Assembly: GCA_049999805.1 (NCBI GenBank)
Contig: JBNGIO010006255.1
Span: 95,701 to 115,700 of the forward strand
Source: Folioceros fuciformis
Lineage: Eukaryota
Direction of reading: 5' to 3'
Length of the DNA: 20,000 nucleotides
This document shows, piece by piece, positions 8,792 through 17,689 of the stretch; the stretch's first letter is position 1; every line of letters begins with the position of its first letter. The position numbers and the translations under genes are program-made. The notes below the pieces were generated by a model. The model made no database searches and was not told the DNA's origin. It was given only the letters and a program-made list of their open reading frames with translations.

Positions 8792-10475
8792 TCACTTAAG
8801 GACGTCCGCTGGGTGGGACGTAGACGGAGCCACCTCAACCGGTTGGACCGTGAAACCTGCCCTTTCGCAAGCCGCCTGAAGTTGCTCTGCTTGGAGTTCG
8901 CCATTCGGGCACATTGCGACTACGGCTCCTCCACTACCAGTGAATTTGCATGCAGCACCCACGCTTCTTGCCGTTTCCACCATTTGAATGTTAAGCTTGC
9001 CAAGAACTCTGTCTCCGAATATTTGCCTGCAGCAAATTGTGGATGAAGAATGTCACGGCTTGTCCCACAGGCCAAAAGCAGAGGACATGTGACTGGCAAA
9101 GTGAAGTACCTGCGAAGATCAAAGTTGCGATCCATGAGCCTGGCGAGGCTGTCATTGTCATGCGCAAGCAGGGCAGCACGTCCTTGCACAGCCAGATCTG
9201 CAATCTCAGCCATCAGCTTTGTTACTGTTTTGTCACCTTCCGCCCACCTTTTCCTGACAGTACTGTGGACCTGTGACATCGGAGGCTTCTTTAGAAGGCT
9301 TCGGTAGGGCGCCACGTCATTGATGATTCACAAACAAGCAGTCACAGTCATGTCATCGTCGCAACAATTAGAGCCTGTCTACGGTGGTGGTGGTGCTGGG
9401 AAAATGACAACCAAACCGGACTTTCAGGATAGCAGAGTACAAGCCTTTCCAGAGTCGCTTGGGTTGTTGGTGTAAATAAGGTAAAGGGGTGGAAGCAACT
9501 GATGATCCATTGGTGTGTAAATCCCATGACCGAGGCTCTCCATTGCCTGTTTGTTGAAATCCTGCATGCAGCATTGCACCACCCCGTCTAAGCAGCATCT
9601 CAGACCCACCAAGTCTTGAAGCACTCATCTGCCGCTTGCCTGCTGATGTGGTGACAACCGAAACAAACCATGTAGACTAATCCGCCATAGACCTGCACCA
9701 CACGATCTTGCAGACCTGCTGTGATACCCAGCTCTTCTTCTGCTCTTAAAATTAGGCTTGGTCGAAACTCCATCTGTACGAGGTGTCCCACACCATAAAA
9801 CTCTAACAGGCAGTTCATGGCTGCGCATACAATGGCACTGGAGCCTGATAGTCCTGCCTGAAGCACAACCATCTCATATTAGCAAACAATATCTTGCAAC
9901 CAAGGGTCACAACAATCAGTCTCAAACGAACGGGACCACCCAGGCTACCTGTCTGGGAATGTTGGTATCATATGACAAGGTAAAGTTCTTCTCAGGAAGC
10001 TTGATATTGCTTTCCACACAAAATTTGAAGAACACCTCCGAAGTGGCCATCAGCAGCCTAAGCCCTCCATAGTAGCCCTGTGACTGAACGTGTTCGGCCT
10101 GTAGACCTCTGGCAAGTTGGTCAACCCTTGCACGAAGTAGCAGTAACCTCTAGCCATGGTCCAGTGAACTTTTGAGTGAACAACAGATACTAGCAGCATG
10201 AGAATATCAACATACAAAAATCTCCTTAATTAACGCACCAGTTGGCCGAGCGACGTGAATTCACACGGATCGTGTGTCGGATGTGGCCTGAGAGCAAGTC
10301 TGGGTGATGGTTGGACAGAAGCAGAGGCCCAGAAATTTGCCAGAGAGAATGACAAAGTGTTGCCATAGTAGGCGTCACTAGGATTTCCTAGCAGGCCAAC
10401 CCTGGCAAAGACCCGGTGTTCAATTGGCTTGTCACCACGGCCGCTCGGCTCGCTGTCTGCTAATTCTGCATCCAT
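8792..10475 (-). CDS. GLCAK: Glucuronokinase (GHMP kinase family), 362 aa
   Basis: Exons 10475-10239, 10098-9949, 9857-9669, 9561-9445, 9270-9110 and 9026-8792. Motifs: [53 protein letters not shown] and KFTGSGGA. Intron 4 is GC-AG. Confidence 0.96.
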
Positions 10476-10570
10476 GGCGGACTGTTTGAGCGTTATCAAG
10501 CCCTAAGGCAGCGGGTGGACGAAGTAGTCCATTTTTGTGACCGTACAGTGGCTGAATTGCGACAGAAGGT

Positions 10571-11135
10571 ATGGGGAGCTTGGAGGCTGACTTTGTGTCT
10601 CTCATGCAATCGCATGCAAAGAGCAACCAGCTTACGAGGAGTCGAATCGGTTTGTGCAAGCTCGGACTAAACCTTTCTTTACTCGTGCTTGATCGAATCA
10701 AGCCCTTCCTGATTTTGAGTTTGCTGCTCCAGAGAAGGCGAAGAAGGAAGCGTTGGCAGGCGTGTCTGTGGTAGCGGACCTGTTCGTAGACAACGTGAAT
10801 GGAGGCGTGCAAGAGGTTTTCATTAACGAGAAACGCATTGAGCTGGAAGCTCGAGGTCTGAAGGAGACAGTACAGCGGTTTTCGCAGCAGTCTAAACAGT
10901 GGCTGACTCTCTTCCAGACGTTCGACTCGGCGCTCAAGGTGCAACACTCAATGCACTTCTCCTTGTTGGTGCCGTATGGTTTGTTCCTCATCTTCCTTGA
11001 GTGACGTTCCAGTTCTATGGTGTGGTTCAGGAGATAGGGGACTTCGAGAATTGGATCAAGGTGATGGAGTATGATTGTCAGAGCATTGGGGGTGCCCTGA
11101 CTCATATTGCTTCAAGAGGAGGCACCTCGAGATAA
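10571..11135 (+). CDS. BLOS1: BLOC-1 complex subunit 1 (GCN5L1 family), 129 aa
   Basis: Exons 10571-10649, 10733-10938 and 11031-11135. The protein reads VNGGVQEVFINEKRIELEAR...KQW...FDSALKEIGDFENWIKVMEYDC. Confidence 0.93.
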
Positions 11136-11299
11136 CCCTACTTCTGCCGATCTCAAAATCCGCAGTTGCACCAATTGTGAGCAGCTGTCGGGCCCATGAA
11201 GGTTCACTCAGTCGAGTATGACTTTGCTTTGCTGTTGTTGGTTGAGGAACATCTCCAAGGGAAAGGGACTCTATTGTAGAGGCCTGTTTTTACTGTCTT

Positions 11300-12207
11300 T
11301 CAGTCCATTCGTTCAACAGGAAGGTTCATCAATTCTCTAATTCCCTCCAAGACCTGTAAGAAAGGAACACGTCAGTTTAGCAACTGCTGAGGAATATCGC
11401 CAGGAAGTACCTAAATCATGCTGAACCGTAGAAAGAGCATACCAGCTTAATCTGGCCCTTTATGTTCCCTATCTGCTCCGTGCGTGCCTCAATCTGACTG
11501 GGCACAACAAAATTGCCGGTGTAAATAAACTGGAGTACAACTCAATGGCGTTCGACATCGTACCTTGGAAATGAACTGGAAGAAGGAAACCACCTCACCT
11601 GGAGAGGACCTTTTCCGTGACAGCTATGAACTGCAAGGCCTCTCTCAGGGTGAATTCCACATGGAAGCCAAGCCCAACGTCTACGAAAATACGTGATGTA
11701 TCTGGACTGCACACGATGAGGAGGCTTCCAGTCACACGAACCATTTCAAGTAGTTCACTATCTTCAGAATGGAAAAGCAGAGTTCTTCCTATCCCTGACT
11801 CCTTACACTTCAGCTTGGACATAAACCTCAGAGCCAAGATTGATCATAGTCCTGATGTTCTTTATCTTGTTTTGTTCCAGCACTTGGATGTTGTTTGCAA
11901 GATCAGAGCTGCAAGGCCGTGTCAAGCCACATGTTCAAAATGATATCCGCGAGGAGGGAGACCGGTGCAGTTGTGGATTTAGCGATCACTTACAAGACCC
12001 GCTGCTTCTCCAGCAATTTGTCCCTGAATGCATATGATGGGATATGAGAATTATGGCACCAGGTACTCCTGAACGCAGCTGGACACAGGACTCTAAAATT
12101 TTTCTAACTCACCTCTGGGCCACAGCGCGGACAAGATCAGGCTTCAGCCGTTTGTCCACAAATTGCTCATACTGCCGAACCTTGGAGGCTATGTTGACAC
12201 TCTCCAT
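11300..12207 (-). CDS. UXT: Prefoldin alpha-like protein UXT, 147 aa
   Basis: Exons 12207-12113, 12023-11994, 11908-11807, 11706-11599, 11497-11443 and 11353-11300. The protein reads KVRQYEQFVDKRLKPDL...TMINLGSEVYVQAEVPDTSRIFVDVGLGFHVEFT...IKGQIKLVLEGIRELM. Confidence 0.93.
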
Positions 12208-12232
12208 CGCAGCTGAAGGTAAGCTGAGTATC

Positions 12233-12590
12233 TAACCCTGAGCCTGAACCCGAGTTTGAGAAAGCTATTTCTCTGTGTACCTGCCTCCCTTGAGGTTTTT
12301 GAGAAGAAGCTGATGATTTAACCCTGGGGCTTAACCTGAGTTAGGCAAGCTAGGGCTTTGAGGACAGCCACCTTCGGGCTTTTCGGGAAGAAAGAGAATT
12401 CTAGTTCAGTCTAATTCTATCCGTCTTGGGACTCGGATGGTAGTCATAAGAAGAAGCGATTTAACCCTGGGGCTGAACTCGAGTCAGGCAAGCTAGGGCT
12501 TTATGGGCAGCCTCCTTAGGGCTTTTCAGGAAGAAGAAGAATTCTATTTCAGCCCAATCTTTTTCATCCTGGGATTGGGATTGGGCCATA
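12233..12590. repeat. Diverged tandem duplication (~145-bp unit, about 2.5 copies) forming the UXT/RPL29 bidirectional promoter
   Basis: Copies 12302-12448 and 12449-12590 share agaagaagc..ttaaccctggggct..gag..aggcaagctagggcttt..gggcttttc.ggaagaa..gaattcta. A more degenerate partial copy lies at 12233-12310. Site II motifs occur at 12551 (AGCCCA) and 12582 (TGGGCC). Confidence 0.85.
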
Positions 12591-12677
12591 CGAGTTATCG
12601 AGATATTCCAGCCTCATCGTCGCTCTCCCCGCAGCTCCGGTTTACGGCCAAGTTGCGGAGATAGGTTTTTGAGCGCC

Positions 12678-12869
12678 ATGGCCAAGTCGAAAAATCACAC
12701 GGCTCACAACCAGTCTTACAAGGCGCACAGGAATGGGATCAAGAAGCCAAAGAAGAACAAGTATATTTCGCGCAAGGGAATGGATCCCAAGTTCCTGCGC
12801 AACCAAAGATATGCGAAGAAGCACAATCGGGTTCCAGGTGCTGCTGCTGGGGACGATGTTGAAGAGTAG
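12678..12869 (+). CDS. RPL29: 60S ribosomal protein L29 (eL29), 63 aa, uninterrupted CDS
   Basis: [26 protein letters not shown]...[18 protein letters not shown] is the eL29 signature. Confidence 0.98.
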
Positions 12870-12970
12870 TCTCTGCATTCGACTCTGGTGAGCAGCTGCG
12901 TTCCTTCCTTGCTGAGGCCTATCGCTGGTGGCGTTTGTCACACGTGGGATTGGAAGTGCGGGACCTTGTT

Positions 12971-13101
12971 TGGCAACTTTGCCGAGGCCTCTGTCCTGGC
13001 TTTTTCCAGGTCATGGATGATGTCTCTTTTTCCCTGTTGCCAAGATGAGGAGGTCTCTCTCGGTCGTCTGCTCTGTGTGTGCAGACGGTTGGAAGATATC
13101 C
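12971..13101 (+). ncRNA. Box H/ACA snoRNA (AUA tail variant), predicted guide for pseudouridylation of the 25S rRNA U in AGGGAAG-U-CGGCAAA
   Basis: Lower stem tggcaac (12971-77) pairs with gttgcca (13036-42). Pocket strands tttgcc (12978-83) and tttccct (13029-35) pair with 25S GGCAAA and AGGGAAG around an unpaired UC. H box AGATGA (13043-48) is 14 nt from the pocket top. A second hairpin spans 13057-13095, followed by ATA plus 3 nt. The rRNA sequence is recalled from the conserved plant LSU. Confidence 0.7.
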
Positions 13102-13337
13102 GGATTCGACCCCTGATGTCTGGGACCAAAATTATTTACTCCCTAGTGTGCTTTGTTGTGGTTTGCGGGCTGCACGTTTGCTGGTTAGAATTTTGTAGAT
13201 TTGTGCGTGACGACGTAATTTCAAATGTAAGGATGAATTTGAAGGACTGTGATTGATTTTCGTTTGTCTGCCTCCAAGTGCTGTGGTCTACCCTGGTTCT
13301 CTTGTGTCTGTTTGTGCCTTAGTATGCTGTCGGTCGA

Positions 13338-13416
13338 GCACGATGAGGACATCTGAACTGTATGGTTGAGAGTTAAGCTCGTTGATGTAACCATACCTCC
13401 TACTCATTCTGAGTGC
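13338..13416 (+). ncRNA. Box C/D snoRNA, predicted guide for 2'-O-methylation of the 25S rRNA A in AUG-A-GUAGGAGG
   Basis: Terminal stem gcac/gtgc. Box C is ACGATGA (13340-46). Box D' TTGA (13366-69) is followed by a gagt/gctc stem, a 3-nt bulge and the C' GATG. Box D is CTGA (13409-12). The 12-nt guide CCTCCTACTCAT (13396-407) is complementary to plant 25S ATGAGTAGGAGG. Confidence 0.82.
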
Positions 13417-13766
13417 ACGTCTTTTTATGGTGATATTAGGTCTAAACGTGTGGGCCTTACCGTTCAGACTTGCTCGCGTTGTGTGCTTATTTTGTTGATG
13501 GTGCCTGCAGGAACTAGGCGGGCGAAAGGTCTTCTTGGGATGTTGCGGCCATGGTGATTTTTAGTTTGACTTTGTGTCTGCTCCTCGCAGTTGGTGAGGA
13601 AACATGCTATTTTGGCGGTTTTGTCGGAGGCTCTCTAGTGTACAATCGGCAACAGTAATTTGTGCCTGATTGGTTTTTCCTGGCTACCCTTATCTACACA
13701 TTTGAATTCAATTGGATCCTCCGTTTCAAAGGTTCGCGTAAGAGGGACATACACCTCACTGGAATA

Positions 13767-15813
13767 TCACGGAGAAGTACCAGTAACTGTTCGGTGTCTT
13801 GGATCTGTCAACCGGGATTGAACATTTGTGAAACCAAGGTCTTGCATCGCTCTTGCCAGATCCAACTGGTAATACTCATCTGTCCACGGTTCTGTTGACT
13901 TCATGAGCGTGAAGAGAACTGGTGGCAACTCCTGCGCAGAAAACCATCGAGCTGGTTACTACACGTTTAACAGATAGCCTACTTCTTTCTATTACTGCAG
14001 CGTAAATGCAAAAAGCTTGAAACAGAAGCAGATCGAAATCTCAAACAACCTGTATGATCTTGGATTTGGGCTGGAAAACAAGACACAGAAACACAGCCGT
14101 GAGTGACATAGATCCAAAAGTTTCAAAGTAGATGCAGAAAAGGTTGAGCAGCTCTAGGGGGTTTGAGACTACTGAGGTCAGTGAGCCGAACGTACATCGA
14201 CCTCCGTTATTGCAACGGTGCCACCAGGTTTCAAAAGCCTTCGGGCTTCTGCAAGCAAATCTCGAGTTGCCGCAACAGGGCACTCATGGATCTGACTCGC
14301 ACATGCAAAACAGGAGCCCAGAATTAGGAACGCGCGGTCTTCACTGCACTTGTAAGATGCAGACTGTACGGGGACCTTTGCCCTTGTCACATACCACATA
14401 GGCGAAGGACACGATGTCGAAGCTGTCTGACGGAAGGCCTGTGCTTTCCCCTCTTGCATGTATCCATCGGATGGGCTGTTTCCTCGGCTCCTCCTTTGCA
14501 GCCTCTTGTTTGTCCAGGTACTGTGCAACAGCAACGAAATATGGGGACAGATCCACTCCCTGCCACAACAAGCCTTGTGTGAACTAGGACTCCTGTTTTG
14601 TTGCAGTGTGGCCAATATACAGAGCAGCATCAGCACACACCCCCCGAGCTTACTGTAACATGAGCAGAGGGAAACTTGTCAGCCAGGTATCTTGTCGAGC
14701 TGCCTGTGCCGCACCCGATGTCAAGGATTGAGGAAACTGCCCCTCCCGAGTACTGCACATGGTGATTGTATATGGTCTTGTACCAGCCTCCCCTGAGGAC
14801 GTCAATGGCCTCCTCCACCGTCTTGGCTGTCTTAATTGCCCGAACCATCATGCACAGGGTTGCTGGTTCCACCTCAGAGGCTGCCTGCAACCACAACCAT
14901 CCAGTAACTGGCCCCGTCATCCATCAGAGAAGGGTTGATGATTTCATGGGCTCCTGCCACTCACTCGTATGCATCCGTTGGTGACCCATCTCGGGAAAGC
15001 ACATGAAGGAACTGCCACACAGAAGTATAATATTGCCTGCTGAGTGTACCAGCCAGGAGAGATTGCCCTCGCCGTATGCATGAAACTCCTTCAAGTAGTC
15101 TGAAGAAACCACGCACGCAAAAGGACCTCAAAACATGTCTCAACACAAGCAACGGACTTGATGATAACAGAAGGGAAGATGAGCTTACAGTCAGGATACA
15201 CGAGGTTCTTGTTCTCAAGCCGTTCCTTCTCTTCGTGAACCTCCTTGGCCGACAATATGTCTGCAGACATTTTCTGCCAAGGAATGCCTCGCTGCTCCGC
15301 GGTGCTGCACCCATGCGCAACCAAGGAGCAGCCATTCAGCAAATTTCATTAGGAGAAACAAGAGCACACATCGATCGCCTTCTAGCACACGTCCAGGGCA
15401 GGCAAAGGATACGACCCGTCTTCCAGAATGAGCCTGAACCTGATAAGCACAAGTCGAGCCATGGGCTTCAGGAGGCTGAAGAGAGGCTTGAAGGAGATGA
15501 GGCCACTGACTATCTTCGAAAGAGGATCATCCCCAGCCCACCTCGGATGATCCAGCTCCCCGTACGCGTACTCCGGAAGCTCGTAGAGCTGCTCTCCCGA
15601 TGCTGTGCCGGCACTGGCACTTGATGCTACGCTGGTGCTGGCCACTTGCATTCGCGCAGCCACCGCATTTTGGCCATGCCTGCTTCCCAAGGTCCTAGGT
15701 CCCACCAGTCTCCTTCCCTGCACTGCGGATGAGGGAGAACCGTGGATGCTGGAAACTCTAGGGGATGGAACTCGAGCCCGGATGATGGAGCAGTTCCCCA
15801 CGACTGCTGCCAT
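13767..15813 (-). CDS. Class I SAM-dependent methyltransferase (type 11/25-like, cyanobacterial-type family), probably chloroplastic, 405 aa
   Basis: Exons 15813-15440, 15304-15189, 15099-15050, 14884-14654, 14559-14395, 14291-14196, 14070-14050 and 13931-13767. Motifs: YPDYYLKEFHAYGEGNLSW, ILDIGCGTGSST, GVDLSPYF, HECP, RLLKPGG and TLMKSTEPW. The N-terminus is a Ser/Arg-rich transit peptide. Confidence 0.92.
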
Positions 15814-15920
15814 GGCAGCGGAGTTCAAATGGCCGTACCAGCAAACGTTGAACTGGAGTTGAGCGAACAGGTATATCGACCATGGCGTGGTTAAGATCGG
15901 TCACTACATGTCCGTCTTAG

Positions 15921-17689
15921 ATGGCATGCAATCTCCTGGCTAAAAGCTTGTCGCTGGCGCATCCGGTTGGGAGGCTCAGGAGGTGGTCTGTTGTTCGTCC
16001 TAGCAGGGCGGCGAGCAGTCAGTCCATGGCAAGTCTATCGACTCAGGATGTTGCCCCGCGCAGGAGTGCACGGGCAGCAGGAGTGAAGGTGGCAGTTGGC
16101 CAGATGAGTGCTTGCTCGGACACGGACACCAATTACCAAACTTGTGCCCGCCTAGTTCATGTGAGATGTGAATCCGAGCGCTGGTACGTCATGCTGGTCG
16201 GAGGGTTGTGCTAATGGAGCAGAGGTGATGGGTGGCAGGGCAGGATGCCGTAGCACAAGGGGTGAAGCTGCTAAGTCTTCCGGAATGCTTCTCCTTCATC
16301 GGATCTAGGGAAGGGGAAGCCCTGACTGTTGCTGAGCCTCTGGATGGGCCGATCATGCAACGGTACCAAGCTCTTGCTAGGTGATCCCGAGCTGCCCACA
16401 GCCACCTTGCGTTCTGGGAGCAGGTACTATGTTGGTAAGCTCACTTGACGGTGGTGTTGTGTAAAACCTGCTGAGCAGAGAAGCTGGAATCTGGCTAGCT
16501 CTGGGTGGCTTTCAGGAAAAAGGGCCGGATAGCAGTCATCTTTTCAACACCCATGTTCTATTGGATAGTGCCGGGCGAGTCCAGTCGTGTTATCGCAAAA
16601 TTCATCTGTGAGTTCAGCTGAGCTGCTTCTACTTCGCTTCTCTGCTGTCAGAACCTTTCCAGCGTCCTGAGCGAATTGTGGTACTGTATTAGGTTTGACG
16701 TGGATGTGCCAGGAGGTCCAGTGCTGAAGGAAAGCAAGTCAACTGCACCAGGTCGAGGAGCAACCAATGCCATGCAGCTCAGAGATAGAAGAAGCTATTC
16801 TGGGATTCTTGCTGAATTGAATGCATTGTTGATGTCATGTTCAGGATCGGAGGTGGTCGCAATGGATAGCCCAGCAGGACGTCTGGGCCTCACCGTGTGC
16901 TACGATTTGAGATTTCCAGAACTGTACCAAAGACTGAGATTCGTAGAGCAGGCTCAGGTGATGGATCGCTGGCCAGCTTTTCTATAGTTGCGTTCCCTCG
17001 AGACGTCCGCGTTTCCTAACGCATGACTGCTAGCCTACACGTGGTGTGTGTACAGCTGTTGTTGGTGCCATCTGCGTTCACGAAGAAAACTGGGGAAGCT
17101 CACTGGGAGATCTTGCTCCGTGCTCGTGCAATCGAGACTCAGTGCTACGTAAGTGGGAGGCAAGGGTTTGAGGCGTGCCATGCTATGCTATGCTACACTA
17201 TCCAGGGCTGAAGTATTTAATGCTGAGGGATAACGCAGGTGCTGGCTGCCGCCCAAGCTGGGAAACACAACGATAACAGGGAAAGCTACGGCGATGCCAT
17301 GGTCATCGACCCATGGGGCACAGTGGTGGCCCGACTCCCAGGTCTGGGTCTTGCCACCTTTCTCGTACTTCCTCCCCAACCACCTCATCCACTCACCTCC
17401 AGGTGGGTTCCGAACGCTCGCAGACAGACTAGCCACCGGCATTGCTGTAGCCGAGATCGATCAGGAGGTCCTGGAGACCGTGAGGTTGCGAATGCCAATC
17501 CAGCAGGTGTGCTTTTTGTACCATGCTCCTGGTGCTGCCTTACAACTACATATGAATCCTGCAACAGTCACAGACGCTGCTGTGCTGACTCGCCTTGGTT
17601 GTCTATCCGCACAGCACCGTAGGTACGACGTGTACGCGACCGCCGTGGCTAGCGTGGAAGGCAGCAGCAGCAAAGTGTCCTCCCTGTGA
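15921..17689 (+). CDS. NLP2: Nitrilase-like protein 2 / Nit1 (deaminated glutathione amidase), 343 aa
   Basis: Exons 15921-16160, 16244-16380, 16479-16607, 16693-16751, 16845-16957, 17056-17148, 17239-17341, 17424-17506 and 17615-17689. Catalytic E-K-C contexts are LPECF, YRKIHLFD and VCYDLRFPE. Also present: [20 protein letters not shown] and [12 protein letters not shown]. Confidence 0.96.

Follow-up and report, generated by a model that had tools for sequence, protein, structure and literature searches.

Can a ribosomal-protein gene whose coding sequence (CDS) contains no intron also supply guide RNAs for the modification of ribosomal RNA (rRNA), and can it do so without exposing its mRNA to nonsense-mediated decay (NMD)? 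This question is raised by the eL29 (RPL29) gene in a 20,000-nucleotide (nt) stretch of DNA from Folioceros fuciformis (assembly GCA_049999805.1, contig JBNGIO010006255.1, positions 95,701 to 115,700 of the forward strand). The whole stretch is referred to as the window, and all coordinates are given within it. A first-pass annotation had placed two small nucleolar RNAs (snoRNAs), one of the H/ACA and one of the box C/D class, in an intron of the 3' untranslated region (3' UTR) of this gene. The present analysis indicates that the eL29 gene probably has a single intron, located in the 3' UTR, and that this intron acts as a small cluster of intronic snoRNAs. The conclusion that the eL29 mRNA and at least one guide for large-subunit (LSU) rRNA share a transcription unit in which a 3'-UTR intron is spliced is supported. 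Both snoRNA-like elements are located on the plus strand, which is the host strand, inside the intron that is removed in the contig holding the eL29 exon.

In the proposed pathway, the eL29 pre-mRNA would be spliced at 12887/13511, and the mRNA would keep one junction 18 nt past the stop codon. Plant snoRNAs are commonly clustered and are either transcribed independently or located in introns of host genes, according to the accessible part of PMC7671301. As with other intronic and clustered plant snoRNAs, both RNAs would be trimmed from the intron, either after its excision or within the precursor. The first product would be an 83-nt C/D snoRNA of the Z105 type, whose D guide would direct 2'-O-methylation within AAUG[A]GUAGGAGG of LSU rRNA, at the bracketed A. 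Less certain is the second product, an H/ACA RNA related to Arabidopsis snoR144, whose 5' pocket may turn the isolated U of AGGGAAG-U-C-GGCAAA in LSU rRNA into pseudouridine.

Splicing of the eL29 transcript and the position of its junction

The eL29 CDS is intronless, as the first-pass annotation had stated. According to the open reading frame (ORF) list and Pfam, it occupies 12678-12869 on the plus strand in one exon, encodes 63 amino acids and ends with the stop codon TAG at 12867-12869. The product matches the Pfam family Ribosomal_L29e (PF01779) without interruption and over the full model, with 84.4 bits (E 5.6e-24, cut-off 27). Since the match spans the whole model, the CDS must be a single exon.

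The 3'-UTR intron follows at 12888-13510 on the plus strand and measures 623 nt. It begins 18 nt past the eL29 stop with GTGAGC from 12888 (GT at 12888-12889) and ends with CTGCAG up to 13510 (AG at 13509-13510). Its removal is seen in X1, one of three public sequencing runs from one study, none of them recorded as RNA; X1 consists of contigs, and its RNA nature is a guess. A contig of 3308 nt (X1 record 4) joins 12886/7 to 13510/1, skipping 623 nt with GT..AG ends (side 255). The splice-site letters and this joint, 12887/13511, agree with the earlier proposal of a donor 18 nt past the stop that opens a 623-nt intron. X1 shows 22 joints between 9000 and 17000, 15 of which are listed. Skips of 83-165 nt are seen at the remaining 14 listed joints, and the 623-nt intron is thus 3.8 times as long as the next longest listed one, in line with the claim that it exceeds the other introns several times. 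All 15 listed joints are canonical GT..AG or CT..AC and consistent with the gene strands, and run X1 therefore behaves as a transcript assembly, or spliced RNA. In the same region, 10 of the 13 X1 records are at least 99% alike, and X1 contains 58% of the words sampled from 12600-13800. The mean word depth of X1 in the intron bins (7.9 and 15.3) is about the same as in the intergenic bins (8.4-11.6), which is uninformative on intron retention or snoRNA abundance. Alignments of X2 and X3, which derive from other organisms, are limited to parts of the eL29 CDS; the X3 contigs align at 12678-12826.

The joined contig could be explained differently if it represented a processed (retro)copy in DNA instead of spliced RNA. 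This explanation draws on the guessed kind of X1 and on the fact that all 30 bins, including intergenic ones, are covered at low depth, so that DNA may be present. However, this contig extends beyond eL29 through adjacent genes whose introns are likewise missing, each on the correct strand (CT..AC, then GT..AG), and canonical ends at 15 of 15 listed joints are expected of a transcript assembly. A retrocopy is therefore extremely improbable.

Exon 1 is placed at 12588-12887 on the plus strand. It ends 18 nt past the stop, and its 5' limit is an inferred minimum: letter 300 of X1 record 4 corresponds to 13510, and the start near 12588 follows when letters 1-299, a piece that is itself unlisted, are assumed to be colinear. 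Exon 2, within the 3' UTR, extends over 13511-13930 on the plus strand. Here X1 record 4 is unbroken, and the exon overlaps the 3' end of a convergent gene on the minus strand. The ORF of that gene ends near 13767, and its CT..AC introns are found from 13931 on; the overlap of the two 3' ends (13511-13930) is sufficient for an assembler to fuse both transcripts. Record 4 runs on into the introns of the convergent gene and is therefore a chimera in which overlapping transcripts were assembled together; consequently the poly(A) site of eL29 is not readable from it.

The first-pass annotation had further divided the 3' UTR by an 18-nt mini-exon and a second intron of 62 nt (13529-13590, plus strand), with a 13528/13591 joint. 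This part does not hold. Letters 300-720 of record 4 are colinear with 13510-13930, and 13529-13590 is retained, hence unspliced, in the one contig listed across it. The sole junction shown is therefore the one 18 nt past the stop, and the last junction is not at the 36 nt that had been calculated.

This junction, located after 12887 with the stop ending at 12869, is less than 50 nt past the stop and so within the 50-55-nt window that is ignored by plant NMD, as had been claimed. According to an excerpt of PMC4417159, NMD in plants is triggered by introns located more than 50-55 nt downstream of the stop. The same source describes a comparable case in Arabidopsis, where the last intron of UPF3 is also a 3'-UTR intron less than 50 nt past the stop (19 nt) and did not expose a reporter to NMD (PMC4417159, in part). 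UPF3 differs in that it is not a snoRNA host and that its mRNA is NMD-sensitive via a long 3' UTR. At 18 nt, the junction would be too close to the stop for an exon junction complex (EJC) to outlast the terminating ribosome and would therefore leave no NMD mark. It can reasonably be inferred that the eL29 mRNA would be outside EJC-dependent NMD. A long 3' UTR could still trigger NMD of this mRNA; full immunity would go with a 3' UTR shorter than about 300-350 nt and an mRNA level that does not depend on UPF1/UPF3.

The intron contains an acceptor-like sequence, tttttccag, at 13001-13009 on the plus strand, in the apical stem-loop of the H/ACA-like hairpin described below. It had been suggested as a cryptic acceptor that acts as a switch. 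The sequence itself is present, and none of the 15 listed X1 joints of the 22 in 9000-17000 ends at 13009/13010, which speaks against the switch. Extended to the whole intron, the idea would be that its main role is regulatory, with retention or use of the acceptor at 13009 switching the eL29 mRNA into NMD or destroying the H/ACA RNA. Either event would lengthen the 3' UTR, which is in favour of such a role. With the acceptor at 13009, however, the junction would stay 18 nt past the stop, and therefore no NMD-triggering junction would be created; only the longer 3' UTR could have this effect. A mainly regulatory intron is thus very unlikely.

A box C/D snoRNA of the Z105 type

The element at 13336-13418 on the plus strand is, by its sequence features, a solid case of a genuine box C/D snoRNA gene, with a predicted RNA of about 83 nt. 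The assignment is based on the Rfam family snoZ105, on homologues, on a covarying stem and on a match to LSU rRNA. The C box AUGAGGA is located at 13343-49 and the D box CUGA at 13409-12. The C box deviates at one position from the RUGAUGA-like consensus, and the same variant is found in many of the extracted homologues. A terminal stem of 4 bp is formed by GCAC (13338-41) and GUGC (13413-16). The D guide comprises 13 nt (13396-13408) directly 5' of the D box, where the class requires a minimum of 10 nt. At relaxed thresholds, snoZ105 (RF00145) is the best Rfam match in 12600-13800, covering 13335-13412 with 33.5 bits (E 0.0019). The guide plus D box, ACCUCCUACUCAUUCUGA (18 nt), is identical to the snoZ105 consensus. 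At Rfam gathering thresholds, a scan of the whole window gives no match for either snoRNA-like element.

The 18-mer of guide and D box is found in at least 119 public metagenome stretches. Among the 119 listed, the 80 nt ending at the D box occur in 52 distinct sequences, and most of the stretches show a recognisable C box and terminal stem. Five of ten loci scanned pass the Rfam threshold of snoZ105 (L001, L022, L023, L046 and L096). The nearest relative among the matches listed is L064, with 85% identity over 81 nt. An alignment (A1) was made from the window element and 27 of the metagenome loci, picked for a length of about 90 nt or less. In its terminal helix of six pairs, 91.5% of the cells pair, a value somewhat inflated because the row ends were picked by a stem-seeking script, compared with 60.5% in shuffled alignments (0 of 500 reach the observed value) and 21-52% when the helix is slid. 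Changes on both sides of the helix are seen in 47 cells.

The guide CCUCCUACUCAUU is perfectly complementary over 13 nt to an LSU rRNA fragment on the IMG/VR contig L156. In the LSU fragment of L161, 12 nt of the guide are matched, and the fragment of L121 has one difference at the same place. The nucleotide opposite the fifth guide position upstream of the D box is the bracketed A in AAUG[A]GUAGG. This predicted target is presumably the site methylated in yeast at A1133, and the snoZ105 family is taken to be, probably, AtU38 of Arabidopsis. AtU38 guides Am1143 (formerly Am1140) in Arabidopsis, according to the accessible section of PMC8583080.

The rRNA fragments themselves were found in an unusual context. 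Eukaryotic LSU rRNA fragments are joined to unrelated sequence on IMG/VR 'viral' contigs, at about 6240-6642 of L120 and in the first approximately 400 nt of the reverse strand of L121. Likewise, LSU rRNA fragments are present at 1 to about 330 of L156 and in the last approximately 220 nt of the reverse strand of L161. These four contigs are probably assembly chimeras. Of the 74 IMG/VR stretches, 72 were without similarity to the L121 LSU fragment and were rejected as chance matches; only L156 and L161 matched. In L122, rRNA was looked for and none was found. A separate C/D reading of 13007-13122 (GAUGAUGU ... CUGA) was also discarded. Its Rfam matches are at noise level (SNORD87, E 8.6; SNORD89, E 3.7), a gap of 5 nt separates its stem from the C box, and part of it coincides with the conserved H/ACA hairpin.

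The comparison with relatives extends to the genomic surroundings. In the closest copies among the matches listed (L064, L035, L062 and the L030 group; 79-86% identity), Rfam places snoZ101 directly downstream, and snoZ157 and U36a/SNORD36 are also present in some. In the alga-like locus L027, Z105, SNORD36, Z101 and Z107 occur together, and angiosperm-like loci carry SNOR75-Z105 arrays. Clusters with several snoRNAs were located at L030 9001-10045, L111 3431-4442 and L027 2217-3983, and also in L062, L064 and L035. The Z105-like members of the moss-like and alga-like clusters score under the Rfam gathering threshold, as does the window copy. When 12501-13800 was compared with the 119 listed loci by blastn, the C/D element was the sole match. 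A tblastn search of these loci with eL29 gave no match at E<=1e-3, and what appeared when the limit was relaxed to E 50 was noise (best E 6.7); at least 800 nt of upstream sequence are present in 93 of the loci and at least 2000 nt in 69. One further X1 contig matches only 13376-13415, which is the 3' part of the C/D element, and its sequence differs from the window to either side of this match. Probably this contig represents a paralogue of the C/D element elsewhere in the same organism, perhaps the cluster copy. The simplest reading is that the Z105-Z101-Z157-U36a cluster is ancestral and that the copy in the eL29 intron is a relocated duplicate.

Measured against snoZ105, the window element shares the 18-mer of guide and D box, the C box, the terminal stem and the length of about 80 nt. 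With the same 18-mer, angiosperm-like metagenome loci exceed the Rfam threshold, whereas the window element reaches 33.5 bits against a gathering score of 45, and its interior is nearer to the moss-like copies (85% to L064). A further difference is the location in the 3'-UTR intron of a protein gene, as the relatives are found in SNOR75-Z105 or Z105-Z101-Z157-U36a clusters.

The end of the C/D element and the 3' splice site of the intron are 92 nt apart. This is near the distance that, in animals, favours assembly of C/D small nucleolar ribonucleoproteins (RNPs) coupled to splicing. The spacing bears on the alternative that the snoRNAs have a promoter of their own or arise from a separate precursor instead of the eL29 pre-mRNA, so that their intron location would be incidental. 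The relatives of the C/D snoRNA, which sit in snoRNA clusters, are in keeping with this alternative. Furthermore, most plant snoRNAs come from independent clusters, as described in the accessible parts of PMC4417159 and PMC7671301. Against it stands the orientation of both elements, which lie on the eL29 strand within the spliced intron. The distance of 92 nt likewise speaks against it. Taken together, an independent origin of the snoRNAs is unlikely.

The H/ACA-like element and its status

The second element consists of a 5' hairpin and an H box at 12970-13048 on the plus strand, recognised by its minimum free energy (MFE) fold, an Rfam snoR144 alignment and pocket pairing. The unconstrained MFE fold of this region (-27.0 kcal/mol) shows a lower stem of 8 bp, an internal loop of 6+9 nt and an upper stem, which is canonical H/ACA architecture. 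Specifically, the lower stem is formed by 12970-77/13036-43, the pocket strands by 12978-83 and 13027-35, and the upper stem by 12984-88/13022-26. The H box AGAUGA (13043-48) fits ANANNA and is single-stranded. From the upper stem to the H box there are 16 nt, or 14 without two unpaired U, where about 14-16 nt are expected of the class. At relaxed thresholds, Rfam reports snoR144 (RF02412) with 18.9 bits (E 0.93), and the alignment is concentrated in the first hairpin. Its letters agree with the snoR144 consensus in the lower stem, in each of the two pocket strands and where the upper stem begins. The pocket pairs with 7 bp (one G-U) and 6 bp around U-C in AGGGAAG-UC-GGCAAA of the LSU fragment of L120.

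In Arabidopsis, snoR144 is an H/ACA snoRNA of 144 nt that comes from an intergenic cluster. Its pocket 1 is predicted to guide Psi1897 and its pocket 2 Psi1255 of 25S rRNA, as far as the available text of PMC2685112 describes it. The window element shares with it the lower stem, the pocket 1 strands, the start of the upper stem, the position of the H box and a pocket-1 target in eukaryotic LSU rRNA. It differs in having no aligned second hairpin and no ACA box, in being intronic instead of intergenic, and in its score of 18.9 compared with 100. An origin of the window element from a gene of the snoR144 type is very probable. A look-alike of the snoR144-type pocket was encountered in a pattern search of all loci, on the reverse strand of L027 (2228-2289) and in L031 (1748-1809) and L104 (3769-3830). 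There, the pocket strings UUUGCC ... UUUCCCU lie about 2.6 kb upstream of a Z105-like snoRNA on the same strand. The look-alike was discarded, as Rfam makes no H/ACA call at these places.

A possible 3' domain is placed by folding at 13049-13133 on the plus strand, with a strong hairpin at 13060-13092 and a closing stem at 13052-57/13122-27. Reading the sequence of 13049-13347 reveals no ACA triplet, so that the ACA box, which in this class follows the 3' hairpin three nucleotides from the 3' end, is absent. In a scan of 13085-13175, AGA at 13094, AUA at 13096 and AAA at 13128/9 are the only box candidates. Since the 3' half has no ACA box, the function of the element is uncertain. Of the two snoRNA-like elements claimed in the first-pass annotation, the C/D element stands at 13336-13418, and an H/ACA-like element is present from 12970, albeit incomplete.

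This state of the 3' half leads to the most serious alternative, namely that only the C/D snoRNA is functional and that the H/ACA-like element is a decaying remnant of snoR144 type, which has lost the ACA box and the 3' pocket and forms no stable RNP. Decay would account for the missing ACA in 13049-13347, for a 3' domain without the hairpin-pocket-hairpin fold, and for a snoR144 alignment that is confined to the first hairpin and stays at 18.9 bits where the gathering score is 100. However, the 5' hairpin, the H box and both guide strands are preserved with correct spacing, which is unexpected in a long-dead gene. ANA variants of the ACA box are tolerated in some H/ACA RNAs, and two such variants, AUA at 13096 and AAA at 13128, are located directly after stems. 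Overall, a decayed H/ACA gene is a possible but clearly less favoured explanation, and the odds that the element still forms a stable RNP are roughly even.

Several points weigh against the preferred reading of the eL29 intron as a small snoRNA cluster. The first concerns the splicing evidence, because X1 is only guessed to be RNA, stems from a single study and consists of contigs, and the joining contig is chimeric across three genes. Both elements remain under the Rfam gathering score (snoZ105 33.5 vs 45; snoR144 18.9 vs 100), and the pairing percentage of the terminal helix in A1 carries the inflation noted above. In the H/ACA-like element, the ACA box is missing and the 3' domain adopts either a three-way junction or a stem with no pocket. 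Target pairing was assessed on LSU fragments of unknown eukaryotic origin, located on chimeric IMG/VR contigs, and not on rRNA of this plant. The equivalence of the C/D target to Arabidopsis Am1140/1143 (AtU38) and yeast Am1133 is presumed from rRNA numbering. Finally, eL29 is nearby in 0 of the 119 listed loci, and the host arrangement is therefore without conservation in the searchable set. With these points considered, the eL29 gene with a single 3'-UTR intron serving as a snoRNA cluster remains the probable explanation. Of the earlier claim that the gene co-produces eL29 and two guides, one unit with at least one LSU guide is retained, and the second guide is in doubt together with the function of the H/ACA-like element.

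Neighbouring sequence and significance

Further observations concern the surroundings of the eL29 gene. Just upstream of its inferred start, a 124-nt unit is present in two direct copies (12315-12438 and 12458-12581; 81% identity, spacing 143). The pair could represent a promoter module that was duplicated, or else a small repeat element. The TGGGCC motifs around 12585 are similar to site II elements, which are found in promoters of ribosomal-protein genes in plants. In one X1 contig of low depth, the alignment is limited to a portion of the eL29 CDS (12705-12753), shows many differences and is lost beyond it; this contig may derive from a second, diverged eL29 gene. At a greater distance, the window contains an SDHB gene for the iron-sulfur subunit of succinate dehydrogenase (1610-2524), whose product carries a long N-terminal extension, rich in lysine and serine, within a single open frame. 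Its best named relatives are from liverworts, ferns, lycophytes and mosses, with 73-80% identity over about two-thirds of the query, and the database comparison did not find a near-identical named entry for it. Coverage of the query by the matches is about 60-80%. These relatives point to a land plant, probably a non-seed plant.

Intronic snoRNA gene clusters occur in rice and Chlamydomonas. The eL29 intron resembles these plant and green-algal clusters in holding more than one snoRNA in one spliced intron and in its translation-related host (PMC7671301, accessible part). It differs from them in being a 3'-UTR intron of an otherwise intronless CDS. A literature search returned no description of snoRNAs in an RPL29 3'-UTR intron; supplementary tables, which possibly list such hosts, were outside this search. 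It is already established that ribosomal-protein genes host snoRNAs in their introns, that plants have intronic clusters and that NMD follows the 50-55-nt rule, and no new mechanism is presented here. The locus is mostly real, neat and worth annotating, and it is less special than first proposed. What is mildly interesting is the snoRNA relocation and an H/ACA relative without ACA.

A more far-reaching proposal connects these two aspects. It states that the Z105-type copy left the Z105-Z101-Z157-U36a cluster and, together with the ACA-less snoR144-like RNA, is expressed from the sole eL29 intron, which is kept invisible to NMD by its position less than 50 nt past the stop. As a whole, this proposal is rather unlikely. 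If it were true, selection on the stability of the host mRNA would fix where a snoRNA-bearing 3'-UTR intron may sit, and an H/ACA RNP would function with an atypical 3' domain and with an ANA triplet as its box.

For annotation, the locus adds two unannotated candidate RNAs that are missed by the Rfam thresholds. It also illustrates the mobility of snoRNAs, as the same guide is found in a conserved cluster on moss-like and alga-like contigs and in the intron of a protein gene here. The layout couples the supply of eL29 with that of guide RNA, in principle without exposing the mRNA to NMD. The eL29 locus thereby provides a clear case from a non-seed plant of a ribosomal-protein gene that would co-express an rRNA modification guide from a 3'-UTR intron at +18.

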